A stretch of DNA of 27,279 nt from a virus. Lineage: Duplodnaviria > Caudoviricetes. This document shows, in pieces, positions 45 through 19,207 of the stretch; within the stretch, counting starts at the first letter, position 1, and each line of letters opens with the position of its first letter. A program made the translations under genes and the position numbers. The notes beneath the pieces are model-generated. The model was not told the DNA's origin and did not search any database. It saw nothing but the letters and a program-made list of their open reading frames with translations. The stretch is from positions 1 through 27,279 of the IMG/VR virus record IMGVR_UViG_3300011443_000046. One strand, 5' to 3'.

Positions 45-1103
45 TCAGTTGAGACGCCGTAGGAGGACTTGTGTGAAGGTCTCGTCGTAGCCTTGGGCGG
101 CGGCTGCGCCGACAGAGAAGGTGTCGGGCGAGTACGCACGGAGCGTCAAGGCGGTGGACGTGGCAACAGTGACGACGGCCTTCAACGGCACACTGTGAAC
201 GTCGTCATCCGATCCGGTCTGCGTTCCTGACGTCGCGAGAACAGCCGAAGTCGTGTTGTCGTAGAGGAGGAAAACTATCGGGTCGGCGTTGCTCGAAACA
301 AACGGCATGACGGCGTCGATCTCGTAGGTTCCGGCTTCGACGGTGAAAATGTTCGCCGCCAGGGCGAGCCAGGTGACGGTCGAAGTCGTCGTCAAACGGA
401 CGACTGTTTCGGTCGCGGCAGAAACCGCCTGCGCGACGGTGCCGGAAGCACCCGTGTCGCGCAGCCACGCGACGGCGTTCGTCCCTCCGCTCGACGCCGT
501 GATGGACGTCAACCGTCCGTCGGCCCTGACGCTTAGGCTCGTCGGGTTGGTGTAGGTGCCAGCGGTAATGACCTGCGGAAGCAGGCTATCCAAATCGACG
601 AGTTGAGCCTTGGCTCCGGCAGCCGCCGAAGCGTTCGTTATCAGGATGCCGTCTGCCGCAGACGTCGCTTCCCCGATTAATGGAGCCTGATTGATCAGGC
701 TCTCCGCAAAGTAAGCTATCGTCGACTTTCGCGACTCGACGACGTCGGCCCTGTGCCAGACGACGGTATCCGCCGTGTAATCATCGAACGCTGTCGCGAC
801 AGTCGGCAGCGTCCCGACGCTCGCCAAAAAGCTCGAAACGGTGATGACGCTGTTCGCGTCCTCGGAGTCGTCCCCGATCAGGATCGTGTCTGTTCCCTCA
901 AGCTGCGTGATGAGATTCAACCCGCTCAACAACAAGTCCGGCGCAAGATCGGAGAACGACACAGCGCCGTCTTCGATGTCCCCTGCTCCCACGCTCCCCG
1001 TGATGGACACTTGAGGTGTCCCCAGCAAATGCCACTGGTCAATGCTCGGGACCATCCCGAGCGTGAACGTGACCGACCGTGTAACTGTTGCTGTAAGGCT
1101 CAT
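45..1103 (-). CDS. Tail fibre/tail-associated structural protein (352 aa)
   Basis: Directly after the nozzle gene; Ala/Thr/Ser/Gly rich; fibre-like motif ITAGTYTNPTSLSVRADGRLTSI; C-terminal beta-sandwich-like region; no signal peptide. Confidence 0.65.
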   Translation of the reverse strand: MSLTATVTRSVTFTLGMVPSIDQWHLLGTPQVSITGSVGAGDIEDGAVSFSDLAPDLLLSGLNLITQLEGTDTILIGDDSEDANSVITVSSFLASVGTLPTVATAFDDYTADTVVWHRADVVESRKSTIAYFAESLINQAPLIGEATSAADGILITNASAAAGAKAQLVDLDSLLPQVITAGTYTNPTSLSVRADGRLTSITASSGGTNAVAWLRDTGASGTVAQAVSAATETVVRLTTTSTVTWLALAANIFTVEAGTYEIDAVMPFVSSNADPIVFLLYDNTTSAVLATSGTQTGSDDDVHSVPLKAVVTVATSTALTLRAYSPDTFSVGAAAAQGYDETFTQVLLRRLN

Positions 1104-2833
1104 ACCCGTGATCCATCAACCGTCGACCCCCTGGTCGACTCAATCGTGACTCCTGCGATTTCCATGCGTCCAGTGGTCGAGACGAACTCCAACTGGACTG
1201 ATTGACCGTTTACGCCTAATCGGCCCGATTCCTCGCTTGACTGTAAAAGATCGAAGCCAGAGCCCTCGGGCGAAGCCCGAAGAACAAAAGGGAACTCGAC
1301 CGAATAGTCCTCGCGATAGGGAGTCGATGCGTCGTGGGTTGCGTCCTCGGGATCGTAAGCCTCCGCGCCATGAGGTCTGGCAAAGACCGTCCGGTCCTTG
1401 GTGATCGTCTCGACGCTCGACGCCTCATTCAATCCGTCCGTCGTCGCCGTGACCGCAACCGTGGCGTTGGCCGTGCGGATTTTCGACGTCCAGTACTGGA
1501 ACTTTTTCTCGCCGCCCGTTTCGCCGCCGTGCCCGCGTGTGAGTAGCCGCGTGGTGATTTCATTGTGTGTGATGTTGCCGTCCGAATCCCCTGTGTCGTC
1601 GTGATAGCCAAGGTCCAAGCAGTAGATGAAGCCGTCATTCGACAAGTACCCAAGGCGCGTTGCGCCGTCCCAGGTGAATTTCAGCCACCGCAAAACATTC
1701 GTCGCGTTGCCGGTGTCGATGGACTGCCAGGATTGGGTAATGGTCGAGTAGACCAGGATCGCGTTGTTCGTCGTTGAACTGTCCAGCGGAACAGCGAAGA
1801 GAACCTTGTTCTCCAGAACAGCGGCAACGCTGTCCCGTGCGGCGTTCCAGTTGATCCGGTCGATCCAGCGTTGGACGTCCATCGACTTCGGAGCGTCGAC
1901 GCCTTGAAGCTTGTTCTGCTCGGTCTGGATGATCGAACAGACACCGCGACGGTGCCCAAGAAACCAGATGTCGGAGCCGACCTGGACGACCGATCGAGGA
2001 GCGTTGCAGCCGTATTCGTCAGTGACCGTGTCGAGGACGGCATTCGCCTCCAGTTCCTCGTTCGTCCCTTTGACGTTATAAATCACATGGACGGATCGCT
2101 CCTTGAGAGCGATCAACGTCGACTCGCTGAATTTGTACCCCGTCACCAAACGGTCGGCCGATCCCCGGTTGATCTTGAAATTTTGGTAAACCCGTTCGCC
2201 GTAAAGATTGGAGGCTTGACCACCAATGTCCGAGACCCAAAACGAGTCCGCGTAGCGAACGCCGACGCGAGCGTCAACGCCGATCACCCGTTCTTGAAAG
2301 TAAATCGCCTGCGTCAAGGGCGGTATCGGTTCCAGTCCGCTCGGCGGGCTCGGGATCGTCTCGAAGCCGTCGTCGAAGTTCGCGAGCGTAAGAGGTTGTG
2401 CTTCGCGTCCACGAAGCAGAAGCAACCCATCGTAGGTCTGAAGCAAATCGGTCGCTCCGGCGAGCGACTCGCCTGCGGCAACCGGGATCGTCTGGACGAC
2501 GTTCCCCGGACGGATGCGATAAGCCGCATCCTCGGTCACGACCACTTGCCACTCGAACCCCGACACCGGGTTCGAGAACGTCCCGGCGCAAAGTGCGTCC
2601 TCGAACGGGATAATCAGTCCGTCCCCACCGCCGACGTTCGATCCCCAGGCCATGATGGCGACCCCTTTGCGGGTCGCAGGCCATCCGGTGTCGAAGCGGC
2701 AGTTCCCGGCGTCAGCGGCCCAACCCTGCCCCAGCTGGGCAGGATCGAGCCGGGCGTTGACGCCTCGCCATAGTCCGTCACCAAGCCCTTGCGGAGCCTC
2801 GTCGAGCGGAAAATAGGAACGTTGTTTGTTCAC
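1100..2833 (-). CDS. Tail nozzle / DNA stabilization protein, P22 gp10-like (577 aa; GTG start at 2833)
   Basis: GTGA overlap with upstream stop; beta-propeller-like segments (YGCNAPRSVVQVGSDIWFL; KVLFAVPLDSSTTNNAILVY); position after adaptor. Confidence 0.75.
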   Translation of the reverse strand: MNKQRSYFPLDEAPQGLGDGLWRGVNARLDPAQLGQGWAADAGNCRFDTGWPATRKGVAIMAWGSNVGGGDGLIIPFEDALCAGTFSNPVSGFEWQVVVTEDAAYRIRPGNVVQTIPVAAGESLAGATDLLQTYDGLLLLRGREAQPLTLANFDDGFETIPSPPSGLEPIPPLTQAIYFQERVIGVDARVGVRYADSFWVSDIGGQASNLYGERVYQNFKINRGSADRLVTGYKFSESTLIALKERSVHVIYNVKGTNEELEANAVLDTVTDEYGCNAPRSVVQVGSDIWFLGHRRGVCSIIQTEQNKLQGVDAPKSMDVQRWIDRINWNAARDSVAAVLENKVLFAVPLDSSTTNNAILVYSTITQSWQSIDTGNATNVLRWLKFTWDGATRLGYLSNDGFIYCLDLGYHDDTGDSDGNITHNEITTRLLTRGHGGETGGEKKFQYWTSKIRTANATVAVTATTDGLNEASSVETITKDRTVFARPHGAEAYDPEDATHDASTPYREDYSVEFPFVLRASPEGSGFDLLQSSEESGRLGVNGQSVQLEFVSTTGRMEIAGVTIESTRGSTVDGSRV

Positions 2834-4470
2834 TGTCCTACGTTCTCCAGCAATCGGATCTTCTCCAAGGCGGCAGCGAGTTGTTCCTCGCAAGAAGGCG
2901 GTGTGCCTTCTTGGGCTTCGTACGGCCCAATGTCCCAGGCGCCGTCGAGGCCGCGCTTGTTGCCGTCAATATCCACGTCAATATCCGGCGCCATTGCCCT
3001 GAAGCGCGAAAGGTCCACCCCGGCATTTCGGGCCACGGTGTCGGCGCTGGTTAGACGGAAGTTGTACGGTGGCGAACCCTTACTGTACCCGGCGAACGCC
3101 GGACGCTTGGACGAGTTCAACTTGTACGGCGTGACCAGAGCCAAGTCCTCGGCCCTGTTTGGCCTCTGACCCATATACCAAAATGACCAGTTCGGGCCGG
3201 TCACGACGTTGGCGTCCAGCGGGAATTCCTCGTAAGTGACATCGGACGTCAACCCAGGGCCGGGAAAGCCGAACACTTCCCCGTCGTCGTTGTCGGAGTT
3301 GCTGTACGTATCCACGACGATGTTATTGTAGAAGGCGCAGTTCTTAACGGTGTACTTGTCGGTGTTGCCCCGATCACGCGTGCCCTGATAGTGAAGCGTG
3401 AAGCCAACGGCCCTGTGGTTCGGGCTGTGATACAGGTTATTGGCAAACAATATATTCGTGATTGTCGTGTTCGTGCTGTATTTCCCCGGCACCCACCACG
3501 CATCGAAGGTCATGGCGCAACCTGCGCTGGTCGGACGGAACTCGTCGACGAACACGTTGCCGTAGACCAGGAAGTCTCCCACGGTGGCGTAGCTGAATTG
3601 GGAGAACATCCAGCTGACATACCCGCCTCCGACCGCCTGGTTGTCGCCGATGATGTTGTTGTAGATACGGATCTTGGTTCCCCATGACTGGATGCCGTCG
3701 GAGTGGCCTGACGAGAAGCCGTTGATTTGGCCGGTAATGCGGTTGCGGTAGACGTCCACGCCTCCGGGGATTTGCAGTCCGTCGTCGCCGGAGTTGACGA
3801 TGAGGTTGTCGTGGATCTTTAGATCGCCCCACGACTTGTCCTTCGTGTTGGACACTCGGATGCCATCGCCAAAGACCTGGTCCTGAATCCAGCAATAGCC
3901 GACTTCCGACTGGCCAACGGCGGCGTTGAAGTTAATTCCTGCTTGATCGGATGGTAGCCCAACAGCCCCGCATCGGTAAATGTGCAACCAGAGAAGCCGC
4001 TGCCCAGTACCGCCAGACGAAAACACCCCTTGGGCCGCCTGGTTGTGGAGGTGAATGCCGATGTTATTCGTAATCCGGTCTATGTCGTGAACGGACTTCG
4101 GCGCAACGAAGTTCGGGTCAAGCGCACCGTTGACCGTGACCCACGACTTGTTTCCGATATTGATGCCGCCGAGATTCACGTGGCCGTTGCGAGCCGGATC
4201 GCTCGCAAGCCTAACGGTCATGGGTGAGGTGGGCTTCCCCAGCGACCGGTCGAAGCCGATGTTCAGCCAAGCGACGCCGAAGTCACCTTTCGCCAGTTCA
4301 AGCGTGTCGCCAGCGCGAAACGCGGTCCATGTGATTTGCGAGAGGTCCGTCCACGCATCGGTCCAAGTCCTGCCGGTTCGCAGCCCCGTTGACGACTGGT
4401 CGACGTACCACGTCGCTGCGTTGGTTATGCCGGAGAGAAAGACCGCGAATAGTGTGAGCAGCTTGGTCAT
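2830..4470 (-). CDS. Secreted-type right-handed beta-helix protein (polysaccharide lyase-like) with choice-of-anchor-Q-like C-terminus (546 aa)
   Basis: Signal peptide MTKLLTLFAVFLSGITNA|ATWYVD; Asn-ladder repeats (IYNNII, VYGNVF, FANNL, FYNNIV); HSDGIQ motif; C-terminal FRL..ARNAG..DIDG..R..WDIGPYE. Confidence 0.8.
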   Translation of the reverse strand: MTKLLTLFAVFLSGITNAATWYVDQSSTGLRTGRTWTDAWTDLSQITWTAFRAGDTLELAKGDFGVAWLNIGFDRSLGKPTSPMTVRLASDPARNGHVNLGGINIGNKSWVTVNGALDPNFVAPKSVHDIDRITNNIGIHLHNQAAQGVFSSGGTGQRLLWLHIYRCGAVGLPSDQAGINFNAAVGQSEVGYCWIQDQVFGDGIRVSNTKDKSWGDLKIHDNLIVNSGDDGLQIPGGVDVYRNRITGQINGFSSGHSDGIQSWGTKIRIYNNIIGDNQAVGGGYVSWMFSQFSYATVGDFLVYGNVFVDEFRPTSAGCAMTFDAWWVPGKYSTNTTITNILFANNLYHSPNHRAVGFTLHYQGTRDRGNTDKYTVKNCAFYNNIVVDTYSNSDNDDGEVFGFPGPGLTSDVTYEEFPLDANVVTGPNWSFWYMGQRPNRAEDLALVTPYKLNSSKRPAFAGYSKGSPPYNFRLTSADTVARNAGVDLSRFRAMAPDIDVDIDGNKRGLDGAWDIGPYEAQEGTPPSCEEQLAAALEKIRLLENVGQ

Positions 4471-4607
4471 GGTTTAACTTCCATCTTCATCACCTTGTTG
4501 CTTCCGGTGATAGAATCGCTTCGCGAGTACGCGCCCTGCCGGGCGACATAGACGCAGCCGATCAGGAAAACGACGACGACAAGGACGATCAAGGGGATGA
4601 ACCTCAT
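4467..4607 (-). CDS. Small lipoprotein (46 aa), not in ORF track
   Basis: Hand translation MRFIPLIVLVVVVFLIG|CVYVARQGAYSRSDSITGSNKVMKMEVKP; lipobox L-I-G-C; ATGA overlaps at both ends. Confidence 0.7.
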   Translation of the reverse strand: MRFIPLIVLVVVVFLIGCVYVARQGAYSRSDSITGSNKVMKMEVKP

Positions 4608-4780
4608 ATCAATTGTCGCACGGGTTCGTTCCAAGGGATGTCCGTCGGCGCCATGCGCAGTTCGTCTCGCCGTCTGCGGTCACCTAATTCCTCCTGCCCA
4701 ACCGGCTGTCCAGCCGATCCCGTCGCTGTTGGTCTAAACAGCAAAGGGAAGATCAGCACAATAATGGCAACCGTGTTCAA
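4604..4780 (-). CDS. Small membrane-anchored protein (58 aa, TTG start), not in ORF track
   Basis: Hand translation MNTVAIIVLIFPLLFRPTATGSAGQPVGQEELGDRRRRDELRMAPTDIPWNEPVRQLI; fills the gap exactly with TTGA and ATGA overlaps. Confidence 0.55.
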   Translation of the reverse strand: MNTVAIIVLIFPLLFRPTATGSAGQPVGQEELGDRRRRDELRMAPTDIPWNEPVRQLI

Positions 4781-5289
4781 GGTTTCTTGGCTTCAACCGC
4801 CTGCTTCAGTTCAATGTCCGCAACCCGCTCCCGCATCGCGTTGGCGACGTCGAAGGCATTCAAGGACTGCTCCTTGATGGCGTTCAACTTGGACTCGATG
4901 GTGACATTGCGCGTGCTGGCGTCCATCTGCATGGAAGTCACGGTCGCCGTGACGGCGTTCATGCTCTTGAGGATCTCGTCCAGTTTACGGTCCGAAGCCA
5001 AAGCCGTCGTCGCGTCGACTTTCCGAAACTGCTCATACTGCCAGATGAAGCGGTCGAGTTTCTCGTCGCTGGCTTTCCTGGCGTTCTGCTCGGCGATTGC
5101 CGTTTTGTCGAAACCATCCATCCGGGTCTCGACGCCAGTGAGACGGTCGTCAAAAGCGGTCACTTTGCCTAACTTGACCAAGGCACTGGACCCAGCCGCC
5201 ATCGCGCCTAACGCAAGGCACGTCATAATAACGTAAACCACAGGCTTCGGGAATATGCCCCACGGCGACGACTTCGATTCATTGGACAC
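4777..5289 (-). CDS. Single-TM membrane protein with long coiled coil (170 aa); holin- or spanin-like candidate
   Basis: GTG at 5289 with AAGGA upstream (ORF open to 5364); TM VVYVIMTCLALGAMAAGSSALV followed by heptad-rich helix. Confidence 0.65.
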   Translation of the reverse strand: MSNESKSSPWGIFPKPVVYVIMTCLALGAMAAGSSALVKLGKVTAFDDRLTGVETRMDGFDKTAIAEQNARKASDEKLDRFIWQYEQFRKVDATTALASDRKLDEILKSMNAVTATVTSMQMDASTRNVTIESKLNAIKEQSLNAFDVANAMRERVADIELKQAVEAKKP

Positions 5290-5370
5290 AGAATCGTCCT
5301 TCAGTTGTAAACCCCACCAAAGCTCGTCGGCAAAGGCCGAACCGCATTGAAGGGCTGAGTTCACGGCAGT

Positions 5371-6012
5371 TCACTCCTCGATGGTGATGGACAGCCAGTT
5401 GGTTGGAGCCGTCACGACAATCGAGTTCGTCTTTACGAACAGATAGTTTGTCTCACCGTTCTTCCATAGGTCGTAAATCTGTCGGATTTCGTTGGACGTC
5501 TGGTTGAGGATATTCCGCTCGCCTGCGGTCAGGTTGGTGAGGGCATTCCCTCGAGCCAGTGCGGTCAGGAGGAAATACTCGCCTTTCGCCATCAATGCCG
5601 TCATGCGAAGGAAGCCGTCCTCCCAGTTACCGGCACGCATCCGAGATGTGAGTTCCTGCGAGACGGTTGAGGCCGTGTCTGAATTTATCCCGGTAATTTC
5701 CCCAGGCGTCAGGGCTCGCAGTGTCCATACCTTGGTGACGTTAGTCGGAGTGAGCGTGAAACCGCCGTCGTTGATATTCGTCCCAGCAGGTTGGACCGTC
5801 TGCTGCAATGTCGCGTCGGGTTTCTGTGGAACGACCAGCAATCGGTACTGAGCGACCTTCTCAGGCTTTCCGCCGAAGCGGTACGAGTCCACCAACCCTG
5901 CGCTGATCTCCTCGTAACCCACGATCAGGTTGCGCTCGGCATTCAGGACGGCGTGCGTCTCACCCTTGGAAGCGAACGCAATCAAGCAAATGACTGCGAC
6001 AATGGTTTTCAT
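5371..6012 (-). CDS. Tail fibre assembly chaperone-like protein with signal peptide (213 aa)
   Basis: Follows fibre/LamG genes; motif P.KPDATLQQ...VWTLRALTPGE resembles fibre chaperones; N-term MKTIVAVICLIAFASKG|E. Confidence 0.55.
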   Translation of the reverse strand: MKTIVAVICLIAFASKGETHAVLNAERNLIVGYEEISAGLVDSYRFGGKPEKVAQYRLLVVPQKPDATLQQTVQPAGTNINDGGFTLTPTNVTKVWTLRALTPGEITGINSDTASTVSQELTSRMRAGNWEDGFLRMTALMAKGEYFLLTALARGNALTNLTAGERNILNQTSNEIRQIYDLWKNGETNYLFVKTNSIVVTAPTNWLSITIEE

Positions 6013-6842
6013 CTCAAGTGCCTCGCTGCTCCAGAATTATAAAGATCAGTGATATCATCTGCCGACAGAACTGTATGCCACACAGACAGTTCATCAATTA
6101 ATCCATCGAAGTACCATCCGTCGCTTGAGAAGTTTCTGCGACCCACGTTCACTGGAGCGCCGGAATTAGGCGGGTCAATCGTCTTTGCACCGAAAGTGTC
6201 AGGAGTTCCAGCGTCCTTGTAGATTTTCATCTCGTTACTGGAAGGATCGAAAGTCGCTGCGACAAAGTACCATGTCGCCGTTGACAGAGCCCCTCCGTTT
6301 GTCGAGATAACGGCATCAGTGGATGCGCTCGAAGCCCTTCCTAACGCGAAGAACAACCGGGCTGCTGTTCCACCGTATGCGAGAACGTATTCGTTATTGC
6401 CGGACGAATTGCTGCTTTTGGAGGTGATGCAACTATTCGATCCAGCTCCGGCAAAAGACTCAAAATTTACCCAGGCTGTAATAGACAGGGTAACATTCGT
6501 ACCCATGGACAAGTCGTCATTGTCCGTCTTCGAGAAATACTCACCAAGTTCAAGATCTGCCGCGTTGGTAAGGATGCCCGTAGCAGACGCGCTGAATGGA
6601 GTCACGTCTGTCAAATCGTAACCGGAGAATTTATCCACGCGAGTCACGGCGCTTGTCCCGGCGGCAACCTCGTCCATATCCCAATAGCTGATGAGGCCAT
6701 TGGTTGGAACTAAACCGTCGAAGTAATCTCCTGTGGAAGCTCCGATCACGAACGACCGGCTGCGTCCAGGCAAGTAACTCTGCTGACACCACACCGCCAG
6801 CGTCAGGAAGGCGACGAGTAGGAATGGAACAGTCCTCACCAT
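6009..6842 (-). CDS. LamG/concanavalin A-like jelly-roll protein with signal peptide (277 aa; start ATG 6842 or GTG 6839)
   Basis: GLISYWDMDE, SITAWVNFES, WYFVAATFD, YFDGLIDELSVWHTVLSADDITDLYN are LamG_3-type motifs; N-term MVRTVPFLLVAFLTLAVWC|QQ. Confidence 0.85.
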   Translation of the reverse strand: MVRTVPFLLVAFLTLAVWCQQSYLPGRSRSFVIGASTGDYFDGLVPTNGLISYWDMDEVAAGTSAVTRVDKFSGYDLTDVTPFSASATGILTNAADLELGEYFSKTDNDDLSMGTNVTLSITAWVNFESFAGAGSNSCITSKSSNSSGNNEYVLAYGGTAARLFFALGRASSASTDAVISTNGGALSTATWYFVAATFDPSSNEMKIYKDAGTPDTFGAKTIDPPNSGAPVNVGRRNFSSDGWYFDGLIDELSVWHTVLSADDITDLYNSGAARHLR

Positions 6843-9800
6843 GCGGACGGCTCCGTCGTGGTTTCGGTGTACTGGAGGTGAACGCCGAACAGGCGTTCCA
6901 AGACGCTCGAATTGTCGTCGGCGTGACCAGGAAGTCGCTTCAACGTGAACCAAGTCATGTGACCGGCGGCTGGGCTGCCGCCGATTGTCACCGCACTCGT
7001 CGCGGCTGTGATCGTCAGGACGTTGGTGTCATTCGCGCCGACGGTCGTGAGGTTCACCAAAGTCCCAAGGGTGTTCCCGCCTGTTTCCCCGCTGTTGAGG
7101 GAACCTCCTCCAAAGGCCCAGACGTTCGTTGACGTAGCTTCGGCGGTAACCTGCTTGAAGTGGACCTTCGCCTTGACCGTGCCAGCGTCCCAAGCCTGCG
7201 GAAGCGTCAGCGTCCAGTAAACCGAATTGGTCGAAGTCGCGCTGAAGTCCCATGTCTCGGCACGCTGACCGTCGGTCGTCGTGGCCCAGACGTTCGTCGA
7301 AGCAGTAGGAGCGTCAGAGGTTCCGCCTCCCATCGCATTGGCGGGAATCCAGATTTCACGGATGACGCCCGTACGGGTCCGCATGACATTGCCGGAACCC
7401 GTTGCCGAAACCGCAGTAAGTGCACCTCCGCTATCGGCCAAAGCAAAGCCAGAGGCAATATCCACGACATTCACCTTCCCGTCGTCGTCCGTGTCGAACA
7501 GGTGACCCCAGTCGTAAAGGACGTTCTGGCTTGGGGCGACGGTCGTCTGACCGTTCAACGCCGAAGCGAAAGCCGTGTCGCTGATCGTTCCATTGCCGAC
7601 GACGTTCGCAGAAGCATTGTAGTCAACGAACCAGATAATCACCCGCTGGTCCGGTGCGGCAGCGTTCCATGCGCCCGAGATAAGAAGGCGACACTCGTTC
7701 GTATGCTGCTGGCCTTCCTCAATAGTCATCACCGGCAACGCATCGGCTGTATTTCCCTCAGCCGTCATAAACACGCCGTAGTTCGTCGTCGTGAAGTAAT
7801 TGGAAAGCGTGACAGTCAGAAAGATCGGAGTGACCGAATCACCGTCCGTAACCGTGAGGCCGGTCACGATGCCGAACATGGCGTTTGTGACGAGGATCTC
7901 ACTATCAAGAACTGGCGTGTTGAACTTGACGTCGAATCCTCCGACAACCTGCATGAGGCTTCCGAAGTTCGTTCCCGCCGATCCTCCAGTGGCGGCGGCC
8001 CAACTAGGCAGGCCAGAAGCAAGAGTCAAAACCTGCGTGTCGCTTCCTTTGGCCAGGTTCGTCCAGCCGGTGGCATCGCGGTACAGGATGTCCCCGGAAA
8101 CCCCAGCCCCAATACCAGCCAAGCGGGTCAAGGTGGCGTTGGTATATTGAGCGTCCGTAATGCCGTAGCCGCCAAGAGTCGTGGGAGTGGAGAAGAGGGT
8201 GTTCCAGTTCTGCGTCCCAACGTGATTGGTGCGGTTCAGCAATGAAGCAAGCGCAGCCGCCGTCAGCTTGTTGGTCCCGATGGACGCATTGGCCACCGTC
8301 GCCGTAACACTTCCGCCTGTCTCCCCAAACGTAATGATGTCTGTTGAGGTGAAATCTGCCGTCGCGAGAGTGCTGCCAGCATCCACCTTCACGTCACTTC
8401 CGCCACCTCCTCCAGCCAACAGGAGAGAATGGAAGTTGGCGTCGATCCTGTTGGTAGAAATCGACCCATCGACAAGGCTGTGAGCCGCATTGGTGCTGCC
8501 AGTCACGTCTACTGCGATCTCGGCTGAATCCCCAAGATTAAGCGACACGTACGGCCCCGCCGCATCCACGAACACGGACGTTCCATTCGTGGCACCGGCT
8601 CCTCCTGTTCCGCCTCCTCCGGTCCCGGGGCCAGCGAAACCCTCAGCGTACAGCACAGCCGCTCCGTTGATGTTCGTAACCGAGATGCGACGCAGGGCGT
8701 TGCTTATCCACGTCGAGATGCCTGCATTCGGATAAGCCGTCTTATCCAACTGGAACATGGTACTGGACCCGTGCTGCCACCTAAACAGTGTGTTGGTCGA
8801 ATGGGTACTTGGGACCGTGAACCTCAACCCGCTCGTTCCGTTTGTGGGTACCGCCGCATAAACAGGAGCGTCATCTGTATGGGTAATGGTACCATCACTC
8901 TCGAACCGAACAGTCTCCACGCGGCTTGTGGAATTCTGTGGTGTGACCTCAAAGTATATTTCGGTGTTGTGATTTGTCGTATTCCACACCGTAGGGGCGT
9001 ATCCAATCATGCCTCCTCTGGCACTGGTCACGGCATTGCTGTCGTGGCCCGCAAAGAATATCGAACCAAGACTACTTACAGATGTGCCCGTTATGTTGGT
9101 CCGACCACCGGTGGTTCGGAGCATCGTTATTTGAGGCGGCGAATTGCTGTACCCGATGACAAAAAGGCCGGGCGCGTCGTCCGACTCCTCCCCAACAACC
9201 GTCATCTGACCTGTCAGGCCATCAAACCTCCATAGGTAATTATCCTCGGTGGCGCCGGTCTGATCTGTCGCAAACATCAGATTCTCGTTGGAGCCACTCA
9301 GGACGTTCGTTTTACCAATATCCAAATCCTCGAAGCGAATCGTCGGATTGTCGCCGCGAATGGACAGTTGCTCGCTTTGGGCAAGTGTGTCGAATGAGTT
9401 CGCTGGAACATCCAACGAGTTGTCTATGACTCGGACTCCGGTGTTGCCGGTAATCTTCACCCCACGGAAAGCGTTATTGTTCGAGGTCGAATCAAACTCA
9501 ATGATCGTCTCAGGTGCCGCGTATCCCTGATTCGCGGACGATGTCCATGCGAAGAAACTTCCAGTAAATAGGTTCTGATCGGCACCATGCTTTAGCCGAA
9601 GAAATCGCGACGTGTTTGTGTAGGCAAAATCGGCGACAAAGCCGCTGTACACGTTTGCGTCTGAACCGCGCAACACAATCAAGTCTCCTCCGTTGTCCTC
9701 CAGGCGAAAATCGTCAAAGCGAGAGAAGTTATTCTGACTATCTCCAGCAATAAGCATTAATGGCGCGTCCTCGTCACCCATGTACAACGCATCGCCTGTA

Positions 9801-11065
9801 TTTGTGCCGCCCGTGAAATTTAGAAGAATGTCCGACGTGCTCCTCAGTTGGATATCGTTTCCAGACCCGCCCCACACAGCGAAGTAAACCTCCGGCGGCG
9901 TAACTCCACTCGGGTAGTTTGTGACTGCCCCGCAATACCAAGTTAGTGGCATGCCGTCGTACAGCCCATTGGTAGTTGCCAGCGTTATGGTATCGGCGGC
10001 GTCGTCGTAGGACGATATCTCAAACTTCTTTATCGAGTTGCCATACCCGGTTTCCTTTCTCGGCCCGCTAAACATGAAGATCCGGGAATAGGTATTCTTC
10101 CATGTGTACCTAGTTGTCCAAAGAGGCGGGAACGGTGTTCCGGTCGTTGACCCCCGGGTGCGACCGGCAATGTCGCAGTCCATAAACTTTAAATCGGAGG
10201 ACACTGACAAAAATACGCCAGATCCGAAGTAACAGTCGCGAATCTGCGAGGAACCAATCCCGGCCCGCGCAAAGAACCCGTAGCCAACGGTGTTGACGAT
10301 GGCCAAACCCTCAATGACGAAGTTCTTGCACTGCTGATCGTCGACTAGGATGCCGGTCTGCCATAGAGCGTTTGTGTCTTGATTATCGTAGTCTCCGTCT
10401 AGGATGAACCCCTTTAACGTCGAGAAGCGAGACCGATTCGTGACACCGTTTCTGACGTACTCACCGAGATGCAGCATTGCATTATGGCCGAAGTTCGGTC
10501 CGGCCACTATGCGCGGAGACGCCCTGTCTTCTGGAAAGCCCTTCGACGCCGACCCATCGTTAGCCGCCACGATCGACACGCCGTATGGTAGGGTCAACGT
10601 GTCGGTGATTTTGTAGACGGTTCCTTGAGGCAGCACCAACGTGCCGAAATCCCCGGCATCGACGTTGCCTATTTGATTGGTTTGCAGACGGTCGCCAATG
10701 GCCCACAGCGCGTCCTGAATTCTCACTGTATCATCCGTGACGCCGTCGCCCTTGACCCCCCAGGAGCGGGCCGTCATCGAATCCTTGTCGACCCGCTCCC
10801 ACCGACCCGTGCTCGTCGTCGCGAGATAGTACCCGCCGTCGACGGCGTTCGTCGCAAGAGCGTTGTAGAAGTAGGCGCCACCGCCGTTGTCGCCCTGACT
10901 GCCGTACCCACGGACTGTCGCCGTCACCTTCTTGCTGGTCCCTGACGCAATGGCGTTTGGCGGCGTGTTGGTCATCGCCGCGATGGTGTCGAACGTGAGC
11001 GTGTAAGCCTGTCCCCCGGCGAGGACAGGCATGAACACCAACAGCCAAATGACAAAGGTTCTCAT
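6836..11065 (-). CDS. Large tailspike/tail fibre with pectate-lyase-3-type beta-helix, fibre repeats and signal peptide (1409 aa)
   Basis: ATGA overlap at 11062-11065; ARSWGVKGDGVTDDTVRIQDAL beta-helix start; fibre motifs LLNRTNHVGTQ, PTTLGGYGITDA, GDILYRDATGW...QVLTLASGLPSW; N-term MRTFVIWLLVFMPVLAGG|Q. Confidence 0.85.
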   Translation of the reverse strand: MRTFVIWLLVFMPVLAGGQAYTLTFDTIAAMTNTPPNAIASGTSKKVTATVRGYGSQGDNGGGAYFYNALATNAVDGGYYLATTSTGRWERVDKDSMTARSWGVKGDGVTDDTVRIQDALWAIGDRLQTNQIGNVDAGDFGTLVLPQGTVYKITDTLTLPYGVSIVAANDGSASKGFPEDRASPRIVAGPNFGHNAMLHLGEYVRNGVTNRSRFSTLKGFILDGDYDNQDTNALWQTGILVDDQQCKNFVIEGLAIVNTVGYGFFARAGIGSSQIRDCYFGSGVFLSVSSDLKFMDCDIAGRTRGSTTGTPFPPLWTTRYTWKNTYSRIFMFSGPRKETGYGNSIKKFEISSYDDAADTITLATTNGLYDGMPLTWYCGAVTNYPSGVTPPEVYFAVWGGSGNDIQLRSTSDILLNFTGGTNTGDALYMGDEDAPLMLIAGDSQNNFSRFDDFRLEDNGGDLIVLRGSDANVYSGFVADFAYTNTSRFLRLKHGADQNLFTGSFFAWTSSANQGYAAPETIIEFDSTSNNNAFRGVKITGNTGVRVIDNSLDVPANSFDTLAQSEQLSIRGDNPTIRFEDLDIGKTNVLSGSNENLMFATDQTGATEDNYLWRFDGLTGQMTVVGEESDDAPGLFVIGYSNSPPQITMLRTTGGRTNITGTSVSSLGSIFFAGHDSNAVTSARGGMIGYAPTVWNTTNHNTEIYFEVTPQNSTSRVETVRFESDGTITHTDDAPVYAAVPTNGTSGLRFTVPSTHSTNTLFRWQHGSSTMFQLDKTAYPNAGISTWISNALRRISVTNINGAAVLYAEGFAGPGTGGGGTGGAGATNGTSVFVDAAGPYVSLNLGDSAEIAVDVTGSTNAAHSLVDGSISTNRIDANFHSLLLAGGGGGSDVKVDAGSTLATADFTSTDIITFGETGGSVTATVANASIGTNKLTAAALASLLNRTNHVGTQNWNTLFSTPTTLGGYGITDAQYTNATLTRLAGIGAGVSGDILYRDATGWTNLAKGSDTQVLTLASGLPSWAAATGGSAGTNFGSLMQVVGGFDVKFNTPVLDSEILVTNAMFGIVTGLTVTDGDSVTPIFLTVTLSNYFTTTNYGVFMTAEGNTADALPVMTIEEGQQHTNECRLLISGAWNAAAPDQRVIIWFVDYNASANVVGNGTISDTAFASALNGQTTVAPSQNVLYDWGHLFDTDDDGKVNVVDIASGFALADSGGALTAVSATGSGNVMRTRTGVIREIWIPANAMGGGTSDAPTASTNVWATTTDGQRAETWDFSATSTNSVYWTLTLPQAWDAGTVKAKVHFKQVTAEATSTNVWAFGGGSLNSGETGGNTLGTLVNLTTVGANDTNVLTITAATSAVTIGGSPAAGHMTWFTLKRLPGHADDNSSVLERLFGVHLQYTETTTEPSAW

Positions 11066-12084
11066 TCCTGCGGGTAGATTATCAGCGTTCGTCGAAGTAT
11101 CGCCCCGTCGGCTGATTCGAGGATGTCTGTTCCAGTGACCGTAAGACCGGCTTCCGTCGTCTTGAACCACTGCGTGACGATGGAATCGCCGACCGTCTCG
11201 AAGTTCTGGCACCACGCCGTCGACCAAAGAGACGTATCGCTCGCCAGCATGTCGGCGACTGTCGCGAACTCCTGATTGACCGAGCCCGTGCCGGGAGGCA
11301 CGGACGGAATCCCGTAGCCGTCCTCTTCGTCGCTTGTGTAGACGACCGTCGCGTCCCAGATGTCGCCCTTGAACTTCCAAGGCCTTGGAAGGTACTCGAT
11401 CCAGGGTTCGAGGACACAAGGGTCCAAGACTTGGACGCCGAGTGACGACTCCGCGTAAGGCACATGCGGCTCGTTCCGGTTCTCCCGTGGATCGCAGGCG
11501 AACACGCCTGCGACCTGGTCTATCGTAAAGAAACCCGTCTGCTTGAACGGGACATAAGCGTCGAGTTCGGAAATCTCGCCCCAATACAGGGTGTTGGTCG
11601 GAAGCGTTCCGGCAGGAGACGCCGTGTGGGCCTGATAATGCAAACCGTCGTCGACGTAATACACCCGGTCGCCCTGTTCGTAATCGACGGTCACGTCCCA
11701 ATACGTGCGGTCCAGCGACCGCACGGCTTCGGCCCAGTACGACAAATTGACCGTCACGACGCCATCGGCGTCTATCGTCGCCGGTTCCTGCCCGGTATGC
11801 GCCTGGATCGCCTGATAGTACGCCGCCGCCTGGTCAAACCAGACAAAGTCCCCGGCGACATAGGCCGTCGTCGATTCCCACGCGTCGGCAAAGTGGCGCT
11901 TCTCGACCTGTGTCAGTTCGCGCCAGAAGGCAGCAGGATGGACCTTGCCGTAGGCTTTCGTGATCGCCCGCTTGGCCATGTGCCACTCGCGGTCATCAAG
12001 CAGGAGGGTTCCGTCGTCGTCCGTCTTCCAGCCCATCGCGTCGGCAACGCCCTTCAACACCTCGCTGTAGGGAACACTCCTCAT
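11062..12084 (-). CDS. Head-to-tail adaptor-like protein with CBM5/12-like repeats (340 aa)
   Basis: Helical N-term (MRSVPYSEVLKGVADAMG...AFWREL), position after capsid genes; W..T..Y..GD.V[WY][FY]...Y.A repeats. Confidence 0.65.
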   Translation of the reverse strand: MRSVPYSEVLKGVADAMGWKTDDDGTLLLDDREWHMAKRAITKAYGKVHPAAFWRELTQVEKRHFADAWESTTAYVAGDFVWFDQAAAYYQAIQAHTGQEPATIDADGVVTVNLSYWAEAVRSLDRTYWDVTVDYEQGDRVYYVDDGLHYQAHTASPAGTLPTNTLYWGEISELDAYVPFKQTGFFTIDQVAGVFACDPRENRNEPHVPYAESSLGVQVLDPCVLEPWIEYLPRPWKFKGDIWDATVVYTSDEEDGYGIPSVPPGTGSVNQEFATVADMLASDTSLWSTAWCQNFETVGDSIVTQWFKTTEAGLTVTGTDILESADGAILRRTLIIYPQE

Positions 12085-12377
12085 CGCGTGCGAACCTCCG
12101 GTTGGACGAAATCGCCCCTATGGGTTGCATGGCGCCATGCAAGATCGTCGAGGGTCGAAACCGTGTCGCGAGACTGCGCCCGTTTCTTGTCCAGGGCATC
12201 CGGCCCGAGAAGATACGCGACCGCCTGCTCAACCAGATACTCCTCGAAAATATCGAGGATTGGGAGCTTGGCCCACTTCTCCGGGGTGTTTAACGGCGAC
12301 TCACCCGGATTCGTGGTCGCGATTGCCGCGTACCAGTCGCCTTGGCCGTCGACCTCGAAGTATGCTTGGCTCGGCAT
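12081..12377 (-). CDS. Adaptor C-terminal-like fragment (98 aa)
   Basis: Starts with second half of a CBM-like repeat (AYF...GDWYAAIATTNPGESPLNTPEKW), then amphipathic helices (IFEEYLVEQAVAYLL) typical of adaptor C-termini. Confidence 0.6.
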   Translation of the reverse strand: MPSQAYFEVDGQGDWYAAIATTNPGESPLNTPEKWAKLPILDIFEEYLVEQAVAYLLGPDALDKKRAQSRDTVSTLDDLAWRHATHRGDFVQPEVRTR

Positions 12378-12385
12378 GGTTCATT

Positions 12386-12814
12386 CTAGAACCCGGCCTT
12401 GGTGAACTTGAGATGGAGCAGGCCGGAAACGGCTTGTGTCGCACCGTTCTGAGTCGTGTAGAGGCGGAAGAAGGGAATCGCGCCGACGACGATATTGGTC
12501 ACGGCGCCTGAAACGGCGGTGCTGGACGTCAAGGTTGGGACGACAAGGGTCGTGAAGTTCACCCAGTTCGTCCCGTCAATCGACGACTGATAGGTCGCGG
12601 TAATGTTCGCGACAGTCGACGTGGCGGCCAGGCCAAAACGAAAACCGACGGCTACCTCACGGCTGTTGCCGACGCCGATCAACGCATTGTTGGTGATCGT
12701 GGACGACGCAGGGATCGCATTCGTCGTGTCGAGGAACAGGGGAGTCTGGGCATGAGCCGCAACTCCCATGCCCAGACCAGCAACCCCGATGACCCATGAG
12801 GAGAGAAATTTCAT
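12386..12814 (-). CDS. Small beta-sandwich virion/decoration-like protein with signal peptide (142 aa)
   Basis: MKFLSSWVIGVAGLGMGVAAHA|QTP (AxA site); QSSIDGTNW motif. Confidence 0.7.
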   Translation of the reverse strand: MKFLSSWVIGVAGLGMGVAAHAQTPLFLDTTNAIPASSTITNNALIGVGNSREVAVGFRFGLAATSTVANITATYQSSIDGTNWVNFTTLVVPTLTSSTAVSGAVTNIVVGAIPFFRLYTTQNGATQAVSGLLHLKFTKAGF

Positions 12815-13299
12815 TTCACGAGACGACGAAAGCGGTAGGTCGTGTTGGACGAATCCGTGCCGTAGCCGACGATGTCGAGAATTGCGCCGGTGCCGTTCGT
12901 CAAAACGGTCGGCGTATTCGCCGTGACGTCGGCTGACTGGAACGCCGTCGCAGGGACGGTCAGGTTAACACCCGACCCGGAGGCGTTCAGGATCAGGAGA
13001 CGATAGGTCGCTCCTGCGATATTGTTCGTCACTCCTGTGATCGCCACATGGTTCGTCGCCTGGATGAATCCAGCTGGCGAAGCCGCGAAGTCGACGAGGA
13101 AGTTCGTGGCAGCCGTCGGCGCAAGCGTTGTCGTCGACAGAACCGACCGGCCATAGGCCGTCTCGTTCGACGAGATGCTCGGCACGCTCCACGTCGCTGC
13201 GCCGGTCAGGAACTTTCCGGCATCATTGGGAAACTCCGGCACCTGTGCGGTGACGCAAAGCGTCAGCAGCGAGAGACAAAGAATCGTAAAAGTTTTCAT
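12811..13299 (-). CDS. Short fibre-like protein with signal peptide (162 aa)
   Basis: ATGA overlap at 13296-13299; MKTFTILCLSLLTLCVTA|QVP; fibre motif PNDAGKFLTGAATW; beta-rich C-terminus. Confidence 0.7.
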   Translation of the reverse strand: MKTFTILCLSLLTLCVTAQVPEFPNDAGKFLTGAATWSVPSISSNETAYGRSVLSTTTLAPTAATNFLVDFAASPAGFIQATNHVAITGVTNNIAGATYRLLILNASGSGVNLTVPATAFQSADVTANTPTVLTNGTGAILDIVGYGTDSSNTTYRFRRLVK

Positions 13300-13640
13300 C
13301 GGTATCCTACCTGCACTTTGGTCGGCGCTTCGCGGACGAAGAATTCCGGCCCCTTTTTCTTCAACCACTTGATGAATTCAGGATCGTTCCAGACCAGTTC
13401 CTTCGCGTCGCAAACGCGGCTGAAGTGCCACTCGAGCATCGGATCAATGACCATCGTACAGGGACCGAAATCCTTGTGCGTCACTCCGGGCACCGCAGCC
13501 GCATTATAGATTTGATGAAGCTTCGCCTGTCGCAATTTCGCGATCGCGATCTTGGCCATGTAGCGGTCCGACAACGTCGAGCGTATCCGCTCACGGACGT
13601 CCTTCGGCAACTGCGACAGGTCAGAAGTGATCGCGGCCAT
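13296..13640 (-). CDS. Hypothetical phage head-region protein (114 aa)
   Basis: Coupled ORF downstream of capsid genes; plausible composition. Confidence 0.75.
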   Translation of the reverse strand: MAAITSDLSQLPKDVRERIRSTLSDRYMAKIAIAKLRQAKLHQIYNAAAVPGVTHKDFGPCTMVIDPMLEWHFSRVCDAKELVWNDPEFIKWLKKKGPEFFVREAPTKVQVGYR

Positions 13641-13642
13641 GT

Positions 13643-14143
13643 TCAGGGACGGGTTCCGCGGACGCCTTCGAGACCTTCGAGGTAATCGCGGACGTGGAAG
13701 TACAGATGGACTTCGCCGACAGTCGCCTCCGAAACAAGCGGAGAACCACCGTTGGCGACCGTAAATAGAGCGTCGACCGTGTCGGCTGCCAGATAGGCAT
13801 ACGGCGTGGTCGTCGCAGCGCCGACTTTATAGACGACATTCGAGCCGTCGGCAGCGAGTTCAGTCTGGCCTAGGAATCGGGCGGTCGAGCCGCCGTCGCC
13901 GACTTCGACAAGACAGGAGGTGATCCCGGCGTCAGAGAAATCGAACGCCGTGACAAGATCCAGTCCGGCAAAGCCGACTACCGTGCCCGCTGGCACGGTC
14001 GAGCCGCTCGCGACGAAGGGCAGGCAGACGACGATCCCGGTCGTCGCTGCGGCCATTGCCGCAAGGTCGGTCGCATAGATAATGACCTTGTGCGTCGCGA
14101 GGTTGAATGCCTGCTCGCTGGGAGAAAGTTTGACGTATTTCAT
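13643..14143 (-). CDS. Putative capsid decoration/cement protein (166 aa)
   Basis: Immediately after MCP; Ala/Gly/Val/Thr-rich beta protein (LVEVGDGGSTARF); no signal peptide. Confidence 0.6.
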   Translation of the reverse strand: MKYVKLSPSEQAFNLATHKVIIYATDLAAMAAATTGIVVCLPFVASGSTVPAGTVVGFAGLDLVTAFDFSDAGITSCLVEVGDGGSTARFLGQTELAADGSNVVYKVGAATTTPYAYLAADTVDALFTVANGGSPLVSEATVGEVHLYFHVRDYLEGLEGVRGTRP

Positions 14144-14188
14144 TGGTCCAGTTTGGTTGGTTTGTTCCGTTTCTTTTTCTCCCAGAGA

Positions 14189-15202
14189 TTAAGCAGTCGG
14201 AGCCCACTTGCCTTCCGCCTTCGGATTCTTGCAAATGAGCATGTAGATGGCCTCGCAGAACGCCTCATACGCCCCGCCCTGGTACGCCTTGCGCTGCCAA
14301 GTGGGCTTGGTGTTCCAGGCCAGTTGCCACATATCGCGGTGGAGGAAAAAGGTCGTGTAGTTGCGAGGCACTCCCGTCGACGGCGTATCGAACTGCCGGT
14401 TGCGCCAGGAGAGCCGCAACTCGACCGTGCCGAAGTCGGTTCCGTAACGCTCCATGACGACGCCTCCGGTGTTGACCGAACCCTGCTGGTAAACCACGCC
14501 GGTTGCGCCGGTCGGCGTGCCGCCGATCAAGGTCGAAGCCGGGGTGAAGTACGGCATCTTGTTCATGGCCATCTTCGCCTTGGGTGCGACAAAAGCCGTG
14601 ATTGGATCAGAGCCCTTTCGGATCGTGCCCATTGCGCGGAAGACGTCGATGAAGGCGTCCTGATTGATCGACGCCGTAGCGGTCGTAATGCACTGGTCGG
14701 CTCCGGGCCGAAAGGCCGACGGCACAATGTCGATTGTCTGAGCCGCCGTCTGGACCCAGGTCGAAACGCCCCGCGTAAGCGACCCGACGGTTCCGCTGTC
14801 GGCCCGGCCTTCGTCATTCCCCAGGAACGAGGCTTCAAGGTCGCCGGACAGTTCATACGTCCGCTTGATGATGTCGCGAGCGAGCTCGTCGTTGACGCCT
14901 GCGATGTCCGAAACGTCCTGATGAAGTTTCGAGACGGCGGAAGCCTTCGTCGCATACTGGACGCGGGCGACTAGCTCGCCGCGGTCGTCGCCAGCCGACA
15001 AAAAATTCGTGACCGGCGTTCCATCAGGATGAGAGTTCACAACCGGATCGGCATAGATCTCGGCCTGATAGCTTTTGACGGTGTTGACCGGCTTCTCGCC
15101 CGACATCAGCCAGCTCATGAACGGAAGGCTCTCGGCCTCCACGTTCGTGATCATATTCGCCCAGTCTTCCTGATTACCGATAATGTTGTCGTAGATCAGC
15201 AT
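14189..15202 (-). CDS. Major capsid protein, SU10/DUF5309-like (337 aa)
   Basis: N-term GNQEDWANMITNVEAESLPFMS matches the G.REDL...I.N+.P...PF pattern of this family; YGTDFGTV; LICKNPKAEG. Confidence 0.85.
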   Translation of the reverse strand: MLIYDNIIGNQEDWANMITNVEAESLPFMSWLMSGEKPVNTVKSYQAEIYADPVVNSHPDGTPVTNFLSAGDDRGELVARVQYATKASAVSKLHQDVSDIAGVNDELARDIIKRTYELSGDLEASFLGNDEGRADSGTVGSLTRGVSTWVQTAAQTIDIVPSAFRPGADQCITTATASINQDAFIDVFRAMGTIRKGSDPITAFVAPKAKMAMNKMPYFTPASTLIGGTPTGATGVVYQQGSVNTGGVVMERYGTDFGTVELRLSWRNRQFDTPSTGVPRNYTTFFLHRDMWQLAWNTKPTWQRKAYQGGAYEAFCEAIYMLICKNPKAEGKWAPTA

Positions 15203-15208
15203 GTTTCG

Positions 15209-16261
15209 CTACTTGTCACCCAACAGTTGACGGACGTACGCCTGACGATCAGCGGGGCTTGCGCCTCGGCCTACGGCTTTAGCCCTGAGTTGTTCGACAC
15301 CCGTTGCTGGAGAGGCAACGGGCTTTGGAGCACCCGGAAGCCGGGGAGCCTGGGGGACGCCTTTTGGTGTCGTCGGCTTCGCCGGTGGCGCTGCCACCGC
15401 ACCCTGTTTCGCAAATCTCGCTTTCAAGGTCTGAAGTCCCAAAGCCGAAATCGCCGCCATCATTGCCCAGTCGGGCGCTTTCTTGAGCCAGGGCCGTGCG
15501 GCGAGAATGTTCTGCATCTCCTGATGCAGCCCGCTGCCTTCATCCCCCATCTCGGGAAAGAGTTCGGCGACTTTTGCAATCGCCTGTTCTTCTGTTCGCA
15601 GGAACGACAATCGTTCCGGCGCGGCCTGAATCACTTTCCTGGCGTGACCTTTCAAGGTCACCAGTTGTTGGCGGACGGCCTTGCGATCCCAGCCGCCCGA
15701 CGGCGGCGGAAAACCCTGCTTCTCCAGTTCTGCCCCGATCAGTGCCGCGTCCTCGTCGCTATCGAGTGAATCGAGGCGTTCCTCGACCCAGCCGTGCGCG
15801 ACTTGTGCGTCTGACAATTTCCGGCCCAGAACTTCAGGATCGGTCTCGTCAGCAAGACCAATGTCTTTCGGCTGTTCGACCTTCTTGCGAAGCTCGCCGA
15901 CTTCCGACCGTAGGTTCGCCAGTTCTTCCTTGGCCTGGTCGCGTTCGTCGCGAAGCGCCTTTTTCTGATCCTTGAGCTTCCGTATCCGCTCGATCTTCTT
16001 TCGAGCGTCCTCTGCGGACTCCGGTCCGCTGTCGTCGTCGTCGTCCTGAGAAAGAGCGACCTTCGGTTGTTCCGCTGGAGCGGGTGACGTTTGCTCCGGC
16101 TCGACTTCCGTCGGTGCGACAGGTGTCGCTTCTGGAGACGCCTGCGTCTCCGGTTCCACTGGTTCAAGGTACGAGCGTACCTTGTCGAATATTGATTGCG
16201 GGGTTTGAGAGGTTCCCTCGCCACCTTCGGTTGCCGCAGCAACCACTGTTTCTTCTGGCAT
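15209..16261 (-). CDS. Capsid scaffolding protein (350 aa)
   Basis: Acidic/Pro-rich disordered N-term, central coiled coil, basic C-terminal helix; between portal and MCP. Confidence 0.8.
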   Translation of the reverse strand: MPEETVVAAATEGGEGTSQTPQSIFDKVRSYLEPVEPETQASPEATPVAPTEVEPEQTSPAPAEQPKVALSQDDDDDSGPESAEDARKKIERIRKLKDQKKALRDERDQAKEELANLRSEVGELRKKVEQPKDIGLADETDPEVLGRKLSDAQVAHGWVEERLDSLDSDEDAALIGAELEKQGFPPPSGGWDRKAVRQQLVTLKGHARKVIQAAPERLSFLRTEEQAIAKVAELFPEMGDEGSGLHQEMQNILAARPWLKKAPDWAMMAAISALGLQTLKARFAKQGAVAAPPAKPTTPKGVPQAPRLPGAPKPVASPATGVEQLRAKAVGRGASPADRQAYVRQLLGDK

Positions 16262-16341
16262 AGCGTTTACAGCCCGCTACCGGGCATAGGGCGTATCGCC
16301 CTTGCGCTATGCGAAGGTCAACGGAGCATGGGATGCTCCGT
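16258..16341 (-). promoter_or_regulatory. Structured leader of scaffold gene (three-way junction including the start codon, plus an upstream hairpin)
   Basis: gcatagcg 16258-16265 / cgctatgc 16305-16312; inner gcccg-ctac-cgggc 16272-16285 and agggcg-tat-cgccct 16288-16302; acggagcat-ggg-atgctccgt 16321-16341. Confidence 0.55.
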
Positions 16342-16375
16342 ATCGAAATGTATCTAAACGGGTGCTTTGAAGTGA

Positions 16376-16609
16376 CTACGTCACTTCAGGAGGAGCATTG
16401 ACGACAGCGCGAATCCGCTCGACCTCCTCGACCAGGCTCATGGCGCCGAAGGCTGCGCCGTCTATGAACGTCCGGTCGTCTGCCGAAAGGCCACGAACGC
16501 CAGCGTCCGCGACCGACTGAAGTGCGGCTTGCTGCGCAAGGTCGCGCAAACCGATCATCAGTCTATCGTCGTCGGCTTTGCCGAGAAGGGCTTCTTCGAG
16601 GTCGGTCAT
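16376..16609 (-). CDS. Small post-portal helical protein (77 aa)
   Basis: ATGA overlap with portal stop; usual position of a small conserved gene in podovirus-like head modules. Confidence 0.7.
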   Translation of the reverse strand: MTDLEEALLGKADDDRLMIGLRDLAQQAALQSVADAGVRGLSADDRTFIDGAAFGAMSLVEEVERIRAVVNAPPEVT

Positions 16610-19200: not shown

Positions 19201-19207
19201 ATTTTCT

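Follow-up and report, generated by a model that had tools for sequence, protein, structure and literature searches.

Tailed phages are generally assumed to complete their particles in the cytoplasm. A second compartment may be involved in an uncultured, likely short-tailed phage with an SU10-type capsid, represented by the IMG/VR record IMGVR_UViG_3300011443_000046. The entire virus record (27,279 bases) was analysed and is called the window below. Six genes of its minus-strand head-tail operon begin with Sec-type leaders. On balance we think it probable, if only just, that the six products are Sec-exported and likely host-modified, and that the fibre-, spike- and decoration-like ones among them dock on the particles at lysis. 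This is proposed because the leaders coincide with a Thr-Asn (TN) bias common to the secreted proteins of the likely host group.

The use of host Sec by tailed phages has precedents. Endolysins of the Lys44 and signal-arrest-release (SAR) types pass through this pathway (PMC6116005), and Porphyromonas phages encode secreted proteins that obey a Q-rule (PMC10367356). The window resembles these cases in its apparent use of host Sec and in the glutamine that would begin 4 of the 6 mature proteins; however, the precedents are either lysis enzymes or proteins without a known function, whereas the window products are tailspike- and fibre-like. Phage-like fibres or spikes also serve bacteria. The examples are the Bdellovibrio MAT fibres, whose proteins follow a signal peptide (PMC10769870), and Pantoea WceF (PDB 6tgf). 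These are cellular genes serving the cell, whereas the window genes are coupled inside a phage head-tail operon. A full-text literature search, judged from listings and the openings of abstracts and with limited coverage of subscription papers, returned no account of Sec-exported tailspikes or fibres in tailed phages, of a Thr-Asn motif in Verrucomicrobiota, or of phage C75C1, which is compared below.

Four phage tailspikes, namely Acinetobacter phage Fri1 gp49 (6c72), Klebsiella phage Kp7 gp52 (7xyc) and CBA120 TSP2 and TSP4 (5w6p, 5w6h), share a neck fold with residues 19-135 of the 1409-aa window protein (Z 8.0-9.6, root-mean-square deviation (rmsd) 2.4-3.0, 98-111 residues aligned). Known neck-fold phage tailspikes and the 1409-aa protein also take the same position in the tail module. 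The latter differs in having a Sec-type leader where the tailspikes have a tail anchor; among its best 150 relatives, 138 are leaderless, without TN excess, and 12 are leader-bearing. Phage C75C1 (OQ984151.1) and a prophage of the Verrucomicrobiota genome G251 have a gene order in common with the window: TerL, portal, scaffold, major capsid protein (MCP), two small genes, adaptor, a gene of ~105 aa, the slot gene, small genes, head closure and tail fibre. The slot gene is defined here as the first gene of at least 140 aa after the adaptor. The portals of C75C1 and the window are 25.5% identical. Unlike the window, C75C1 has no leader in any of the 17 late genes tested, and its slot protein contains 4 TN pairs vs. 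3.7 expected.

Leaders in the window and across the phage family

Leaders were called with a heuristic of our own, not with SignalP; it requires a basic n-region, an uncharged hydrophobic core and small residues at positions -3 and -1. All six leaders that had been predicted from the DNA pass the caller with the same cleavage sites, and thus all show the sequence features of Sec/signal peptidase I substrates. They comprise 18 (gene start 13299), 22 (12814), 18 (11065), 19 (6842), 17 (6012) and 18 aa (4470). Chance controls give 1 pass among 89 internal Met positions and 62 among 2600 shuffles. The core proteins were said to lack leaders, and none of the 13 other late genes passes; the 352-aa gene gave a weak signal under less strict settings of the caller and none under the stricter ones used here. 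The starts were also said to be fixed by stop-start overlaps. Five genes do overlap the upstream stop by 4 nucleotides, and the sixth, the LamG (277-aa) gene, has two options, ATG 6842 (7-nucleotide overlap) or GTG 6839 (4-nucleotide overlap), with the leader kept in both. Since in-frame start codons sit within four of the leaders, we infer the use of the first start; another such codon is number 20 of the 162-aa gene, and the 546-aa gene has no alternative in-frame start within its first 60 codons.

Homologues were examined for leader retention, as the original prediction had suggested. Both homologues of the 142-aa protein carry a leader, the sequence of which drifts, with identity beginning at the cleavage site. 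In the case of the 546-aa protein, retention was seen in two of three homologues, the distant third (26% identity) having no leader as called. Supported by the controls, by family-wide conservation and by the host-secretome sequence signature described below, the claim of export stands well, and the six proteins are very likely to be exported via host Sec, as judged from their sequences.

The family was collected by capsid and portal searches (loci L001-L082, leaving out L022, L023 and L029 as the window's own or near copies), and duplicates were removed at 85% identity. The slot gene is visible in 23 distinct loci, window included, and is leader-bearing in 16 of them: 14 by the caller, L013 and L018 by eye (L018 after start correction). 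The seven leaderless slot genes belong to L027, L030, L047, L066, L072, L073 and L075, four of which form one clade and are not independent. Among the core proteins of the family a leader is called in 1/265, and the post-nozzle fibre-slot gene is leaderless in 7/7 loci. The feature is real and family-wide, and the leaders are restricted to appendage slots.

The same slots hold virion-type proteins. The leaderless slot gene of L066 encodes a tail spike (phrog_4636, E 3.7e-134) in the slot that is leader-bearing in relatives. In a PHROG scan of 29 family proteins, many of which had no match, the leader-bearing protein of L001 matched a virion structural family (phrog_1645, E 5.6e-53) and that of L040 a tail spike family (E 6.1e-18). 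The leader-bearing protein of L082 aligns through residues 21-182 to the tail-connector profile phrog_677 from profile position 2, and therefore cleavage would expose a normal N-terminus. A profile of the leaderless slot proteins of ~100 aa did not pick up the 142- and 162-aa proteins. On the capsid tree, which carries long-branch warnings and in which the L025 label covers the pre-adaptor slot only, the leader label changes four times, with no direction claimed. The prophage in the complete Verrucomicrobiota genome G251 (L121-L123; G251:C1 ~3.055-3.095 Mb) belongs to this family; its slot gene lacks a leader, a 2411-aa gene follows the tail fibre, and its post-nozzle gene has tail-fibre PHROG matches.

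Nature of the probably exported products

The six products had been described as virion appendages. This description fits the 1409-aa protein, by its neck fold, and is favoured by the leader-bearing relatives in the same slots; for the 142-aa protein it can be maintained weakly, on modelled similarity, and the 546-aa protein looks enzyme-like instead. A search with residues 19-135 of the 1409-aa protein gives 2168 relatives at E<=1e-3, and all 25 of those scanned from the best 150 match a tail-fibre or tailspike PHROG. The neck region is predicted with a predicted local distance difference test score (pLDDT) of 88. In a fold search with this model, phage tailspikes take 14 of the 15 best rows (the first with Z 9.6, rmsd 2.5 and 108 residues aligned), and Z drops to 4.2 at row 16. 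The model extends over the neck and into the beginning of the helix motif only, and according to it the protein would be a tailspike with a neck domain before a beta-helix. By an approximate count, 93 of the 150 neck homologues have at least 40 residues before the neck domain; some leaderless homologues also begin at it. The 1409-aa protein has two patterns (at residues 961 and 991) that we take to be fibre motifs, and the 162-aa protein has one (at residue 28).

The 162- and 213-aa proteins have no Pfam or PHROG match, the latter perhaps resembling tail-fibre assembly chaperones. The nearest ESM Atlas clusters of the 142-aa protein are viral proteins of 106-128 aa with template modelling (TM) scores of 0.69-0.80 and no named family; its own AlphaFold model is poor (pLDDT 47). 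The 277-aa protein matches PF13385 (E 3.7e-21) and phrog_18503 (E 1.5e-10). Homologues of the 546-aa protein lie in bacterial genomes, the best two being from Verrucomicrobiota, and it looks more like a secreted bacterial-type beta-helix enzyme than a virion part. It is the weakest case of the six and may stay free. Searches of PDB sequences with the 1409- and 546-aa proteins gave no match. Disulphide folding was considered as a motive for export and rejected, since cysteines are not paired in the window or family set: the six mature window proteins contain 0, 0, 5, 1, 0 and 5, and among the 40 leader-bearing family proteins, some of them truncated, 6 have an even number, 20 an odd number and 14 none.

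A candidate docking site is offered by the adaptor. The window adaptor is split and reordered, with the C-terminal part of ~98 residues encoded upstream by a gene of its own; L003, L004, L007, L012, L013 and L015 share this arrangement, and the adaptor is fused in L010, L011, L016, L018-L021, L027, L030, L032, L040 and L041; by BLAST, the 98-aa window protein aligns to residues ~245-325 of the fused adaptors. The tail of the split adaptor matches a tailspike-neck profile in L007 (E 3.4e-6) and when four tails are combined in a profile (E 1.9e-4); L003 and L004 alone are not significant. From this similarity, the free C-terminal ~70 residues of the window adaptor may derive from a neck domain as a degenerate copy. 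Several split adaptors carry a fibre-type domain at the freed C-terminus, and that of L012 matches the C-terminus of an L016 fibre (E 2.4e-9).

Thr-Asn signature, likely host and proposed mode of assembly

The six mature window proteins contain 51 TN pairs vs. 20.8 in shuffles, and none of 3000 shuffles reaches this number. The excess is also seen without the largest protein (21 vs. 9.3), and the 13 leaderless window genes are at expectation (10 vs. 9.0). TN is the top dipeptide of the 40 leader-called family proteins (338 vs. 137), with core proteins at 207 vs. 213; SN, NT and N-x-S/T are not raised in these 40 proteins. Slot proteins give 214 observed per 90 expected with a leader and 15 per 29 without. 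A charged residue occurs two positions after the Asn at 9 of 338 TN sites (background 13.8%) vs. 58 of 206 in core proteins, so that the context in leader-called proteins is T-N-x-uncharged.

Several origins of this signature were tried and rejected. As a generic trait of beta-helices or tailspikes it should not be missing from neck homologues, and it is absent in the 138 leaderless (561 vs. 649) and the 12 leader-bearing ones (59 vs. 61). N-glycosylation by STT3/PglB is not indicated, with N-x-S/T sequons at 220 vs. 225 expected and STT3 in 3 of 61 genomes of the candidate host order, that of genome G001. The general O-glycosylation of Bacteroidetes acts at D-(S/T)-(A/I/L/V/M/T) and requires export (PMC8550257). 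Both that motif and T-N-x-uncharged are three to four residues long, tied to export and closed by an uncharged position, from which glycosylation might be suspected here by analogy. The motifs themselves differ, and the tested regions of host-order genomes show no excess of the Bacteroidetes one (109/121 and 43/42 in two secreted sets, host proteins counted). A ~740-aa PMT_2 protein is conserved in the host order (PMT_2 matches in 39/41 genomes); it was set aside as a transferase for its housekeeping neighbours and its resemblance to what we take to be a phosphatase-ArnT-type lipid enzyme. The bias could also be passive, a by-product of acquiring domains from secreted host proteins.

The likely host phylum is Verrucomicrobiota. 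Capsid matches occur in 11 of 401 Verrucomicrobiota genomes and in 3 of 401 genomes of the order of G001, perhaps Limisphaerales. They are distant (best E 2e-40), and three of the capsid-bearing contigs checked share TerL, portal and gene order with the phage family; an MCP scan of the genome-contig collection gave no match. Secreted proteins of G001, sampled in 20 regions of which 13 were chosen around FN3 matches, have the bias in the same residue context (434/233). The G001 non-leader set is raised too (213/130), mostly by 15 Thr-rich open reading frames (ORFs) that include missed leaders and fragments, and falls to 56/60 without them in a post hoc split. Unselected contig starts of five genomes of the order give 78/45 for secreted proteins and 88/87 for others, and the bias is absent in secreted proteins of G002, G005, G251 and G317. 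The TN bias is thus common to the secretome of one order. Host and phage agree in all four genomes holding a family phage with a visible slot: biased hosts G031 (14/7) and G711 (51/26), whose non-leader sets are also mildly raised, have leader-bearing, TN-rich slot genes, and unbiased hosts G251 (73/87) and G317 (23/22) have leaderless ones. A mature glutamine would be exposed in 18 of 40 leader-bearing family proteins and, by the same caller, in fewer host proteins (8/57 in G001); a Gln-at-+1 rule for the host is not evident. G003 (L086), labelled Bifidobacteriaceae and possibly mislabelled, shows a secreted-protein TN excess of 167 vs. 89 with many FN3 proteins.

These observations can be combined as follows. 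Late in infection, the leaders would send the six products through host Sec into the periplasm of the likely Verrucomicrobiota host, where the leaders would be cleaved and the proteins fold. A host envelope enzyme may modify them at T-N-x-uncharged sites, most likely by glycosylation if the Bacteroidetes analogy holds. Core particles would meanwhile be built in the cytoplasm; holin lesions or lysis would then mix the two compartments and allow the fibre-, lectin- and decoration-like proteins to bind, with the freed C-terminal domain of the adaptor as a candidate docking site. With modification as the motive, it would make sense that export follows host lineage even though the cysteines are unpaired.

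Several points weigh against such a route. One gene in the fibre slot (45-1103) is leaderless, and the phage therefore may not need exported appendages. No recognisable tail anchor precedes the neck of the 1409-aa protein, with ~3 residues between leader and neck, and the bacterial tailspike-like enzyme WceF is among its top folds (Z 8.2). The Atlas clusters of the 546-aa protein, which resembles bacterial secreted beta-helix proteins, are 81-100% bacterial (score 0.96-0.97). The window's adaptor tail matches the neck profile weakly (E 0.013; reversed controls 0.03-0.33). Three leader-bearing slot proteins are without clear TN excess (ratios 0.85, 1.11 and 1.27), and no candidate transferase was found in the host order, STT3 being confined to the 3 of 61 genomes. 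The host comparison is a small sample; three of its members (G031, G711 and G317) come from binned contigs, and frameshifts occur in L162.

Proteins that are exported and stay off the virion are a rather unlikely alternative, though one to be reckoned with: free depolymerases, lectins and decoys would remove or mask the capsule on the infected cell and on cells around it, and the leaderless 352-aa fibre would recognise the host. The leaderless post-nozzle fibre in 7/7 loci would suit this, as would the position of the enzyme-like 546-aa protein next to lysis-type genes, the missing anchor of the 1409-aa protein, and WceF and the MAT fibres as phage-like fibres working outside virions. It sits less easily with leaders on the non-enzymatic virion-type proteins of L001 and L082, with the ordinary leaderless spikes that the slot holds in relatives, and with the extra adaptor C-terminal domain in loci whose fibre starts with the neck, where the profile match is clear in L007 only.

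Lysogenic-conversion cargo, by which a prophage would display the proteins as host surface adhesins or exclusion factors, is improbable. To either side of the adaptor, the genes are translationally coupled within the head-tail operon, and such an operon is normally silent in lysogens. In favour of this possibility are the integration of a family member in G251, although the slot gene of that prophage lacks a leader, and the secreted proteins of Porphyromonas phages, which have been proposed to change the host surface (PMC10367356). Marginally less credible still is that the leaders are unused or bypassed, with downstream starts or uncleaved assembly or membrane anchors and proteins built in the cytoplasm. 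The in-frame starts inside four leaders and directly after a fifth would permit this, and the leader calls come from a heuristic caller only. Against it are the overlap-coupled starts, the 546-aa gene with its single start, the internal Met of the 142-aa leader that is missing in one of two homologues, and the TN bias, which marks secreted, not cytoplasmic, proteins in the host order.

Returning to docking at lysis, a fuller version is more tentative, and we regard it as possible but doubtful: receptor-binding and decoration proteins would be built in the periplasm, glycosylated at T-N-x-uncharged by an undescribed host enzyme and docked on finished particles at lysis, which would imply a new general modification motif in one Verrucomicrobiota order. 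If true, this would be a two-compartment assembly route yielding host-glycosylated virions. Within the family, one tail slot is occupied by leaderless proteins in some members and by exported ones in others, following a mark of the host secretome; this gives export a motive that does not involve disulphides, and it turns virion completion at lysis and periplasmic Thr-Asn modification in this order into testable questions. Host prediction for uncultured phages may likewise make use of the Thr-Asn mark.

Operon layout and neighbouring genes

The features of the operon are listed below. The record stops after the 352-aa gene, and genes further downstream lie outside the data.

Features of the head-tail operon of the window, from high to low coordinates
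Feature	Coordinates	Strand	Basis
Head module, leaderless: TerL, portal, 77-aa gene, scaffold, SU10-type MCP, 166-aa and 114-aa genes	13296..21031	-	MCP by PF17236, rest by position/synteny
162-aa protein, leader 18 aa, mature Gln; short, fibre-like	12811..13299	-	Leader call; TN 4 vs. 1.8
142-aa putative beta-sandwich protein with a leader of 22 aa; candidate decoration or spike-base-like jelly roll	12386..12814	-	ESM Atlas, homologues
98-aa leaderless protein, C-terminal part of relatives' adaptor, encoded separately	12081..12377	-	BLAST
340-aa leaderless adaptor-slot protein; last ~70 residues a candidate docking domain	11062..12084	-	20 relatives
1409-aa tailspike/fibre with leader and neck domain (residues 19-135), probably followed by beta-helix and fibre repeats	6836..11065	-	Fold and PHROG; TN 30 vs. 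11.6
277-aa leader-bearing LamG/concanavalin-A-like lectin	6009..6842	-	PF13385, phrog_18503
213-aa leader-bearing protein, no family	5371..6012	-	Leader call; TN 6 vs. 1.9
Likely lysis or membrane cassette: 195-aa membrane/coiled-coil, 58-aa hydrophobic and 46-aa lipobox-like (4467-4607) genes	4467..5364	-	Sequence; putative function
546-aa leader-bearing Pel9A-like beta-helix protein, short C-terminal helix; likely secreted glycan-acting enzyme	2830..4470	-	Atlas, homologues
577-aa leaderless nozzle/head-closure protein	1100..2833	-	phrog_578 head closure, E 4.7e-5; C75C1 slot is head closure
352-aa leaderless protein, post-nozzle tail-fibre slot	45..1103	-	Synteny; C75C1 counterpart annotated tail fiber

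The MCP is identified as SU10-type by its match to PF17236 (E 1.8e-28). TerL, portal, scaffold and adaptor have no informative Pfam or PHROG match and are named from position and synteny with relatives and C75C1. The 46-aa ORF has a lipobox-like LIG|C and would be a seventh exported product, absent from the list of the original prediction. Relatives carry lipoprotein- and holin-like small genes at the position of the cassette, and no endolysin was recognised anywhere in the window. The enzyme slot of the lysis region varies among relatives, with what we take to be caspase-like and amidase-like N-termini at L015:12236-13030 and L021:17844-18320.

Upstream of TerL, a 65-aa two-helix membrane protein is encoded at 21063-21260, and similar small hydrophobic genes are found near the head genes of L016. 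An HNH endonuclease-like gene (23477-23983; phrog_3377, E 1.5e-9) lies at the start of the late strand, and the guanine-cytosine (GC) skew switches near 24000, in a region of small early genes encoded on the + strand.

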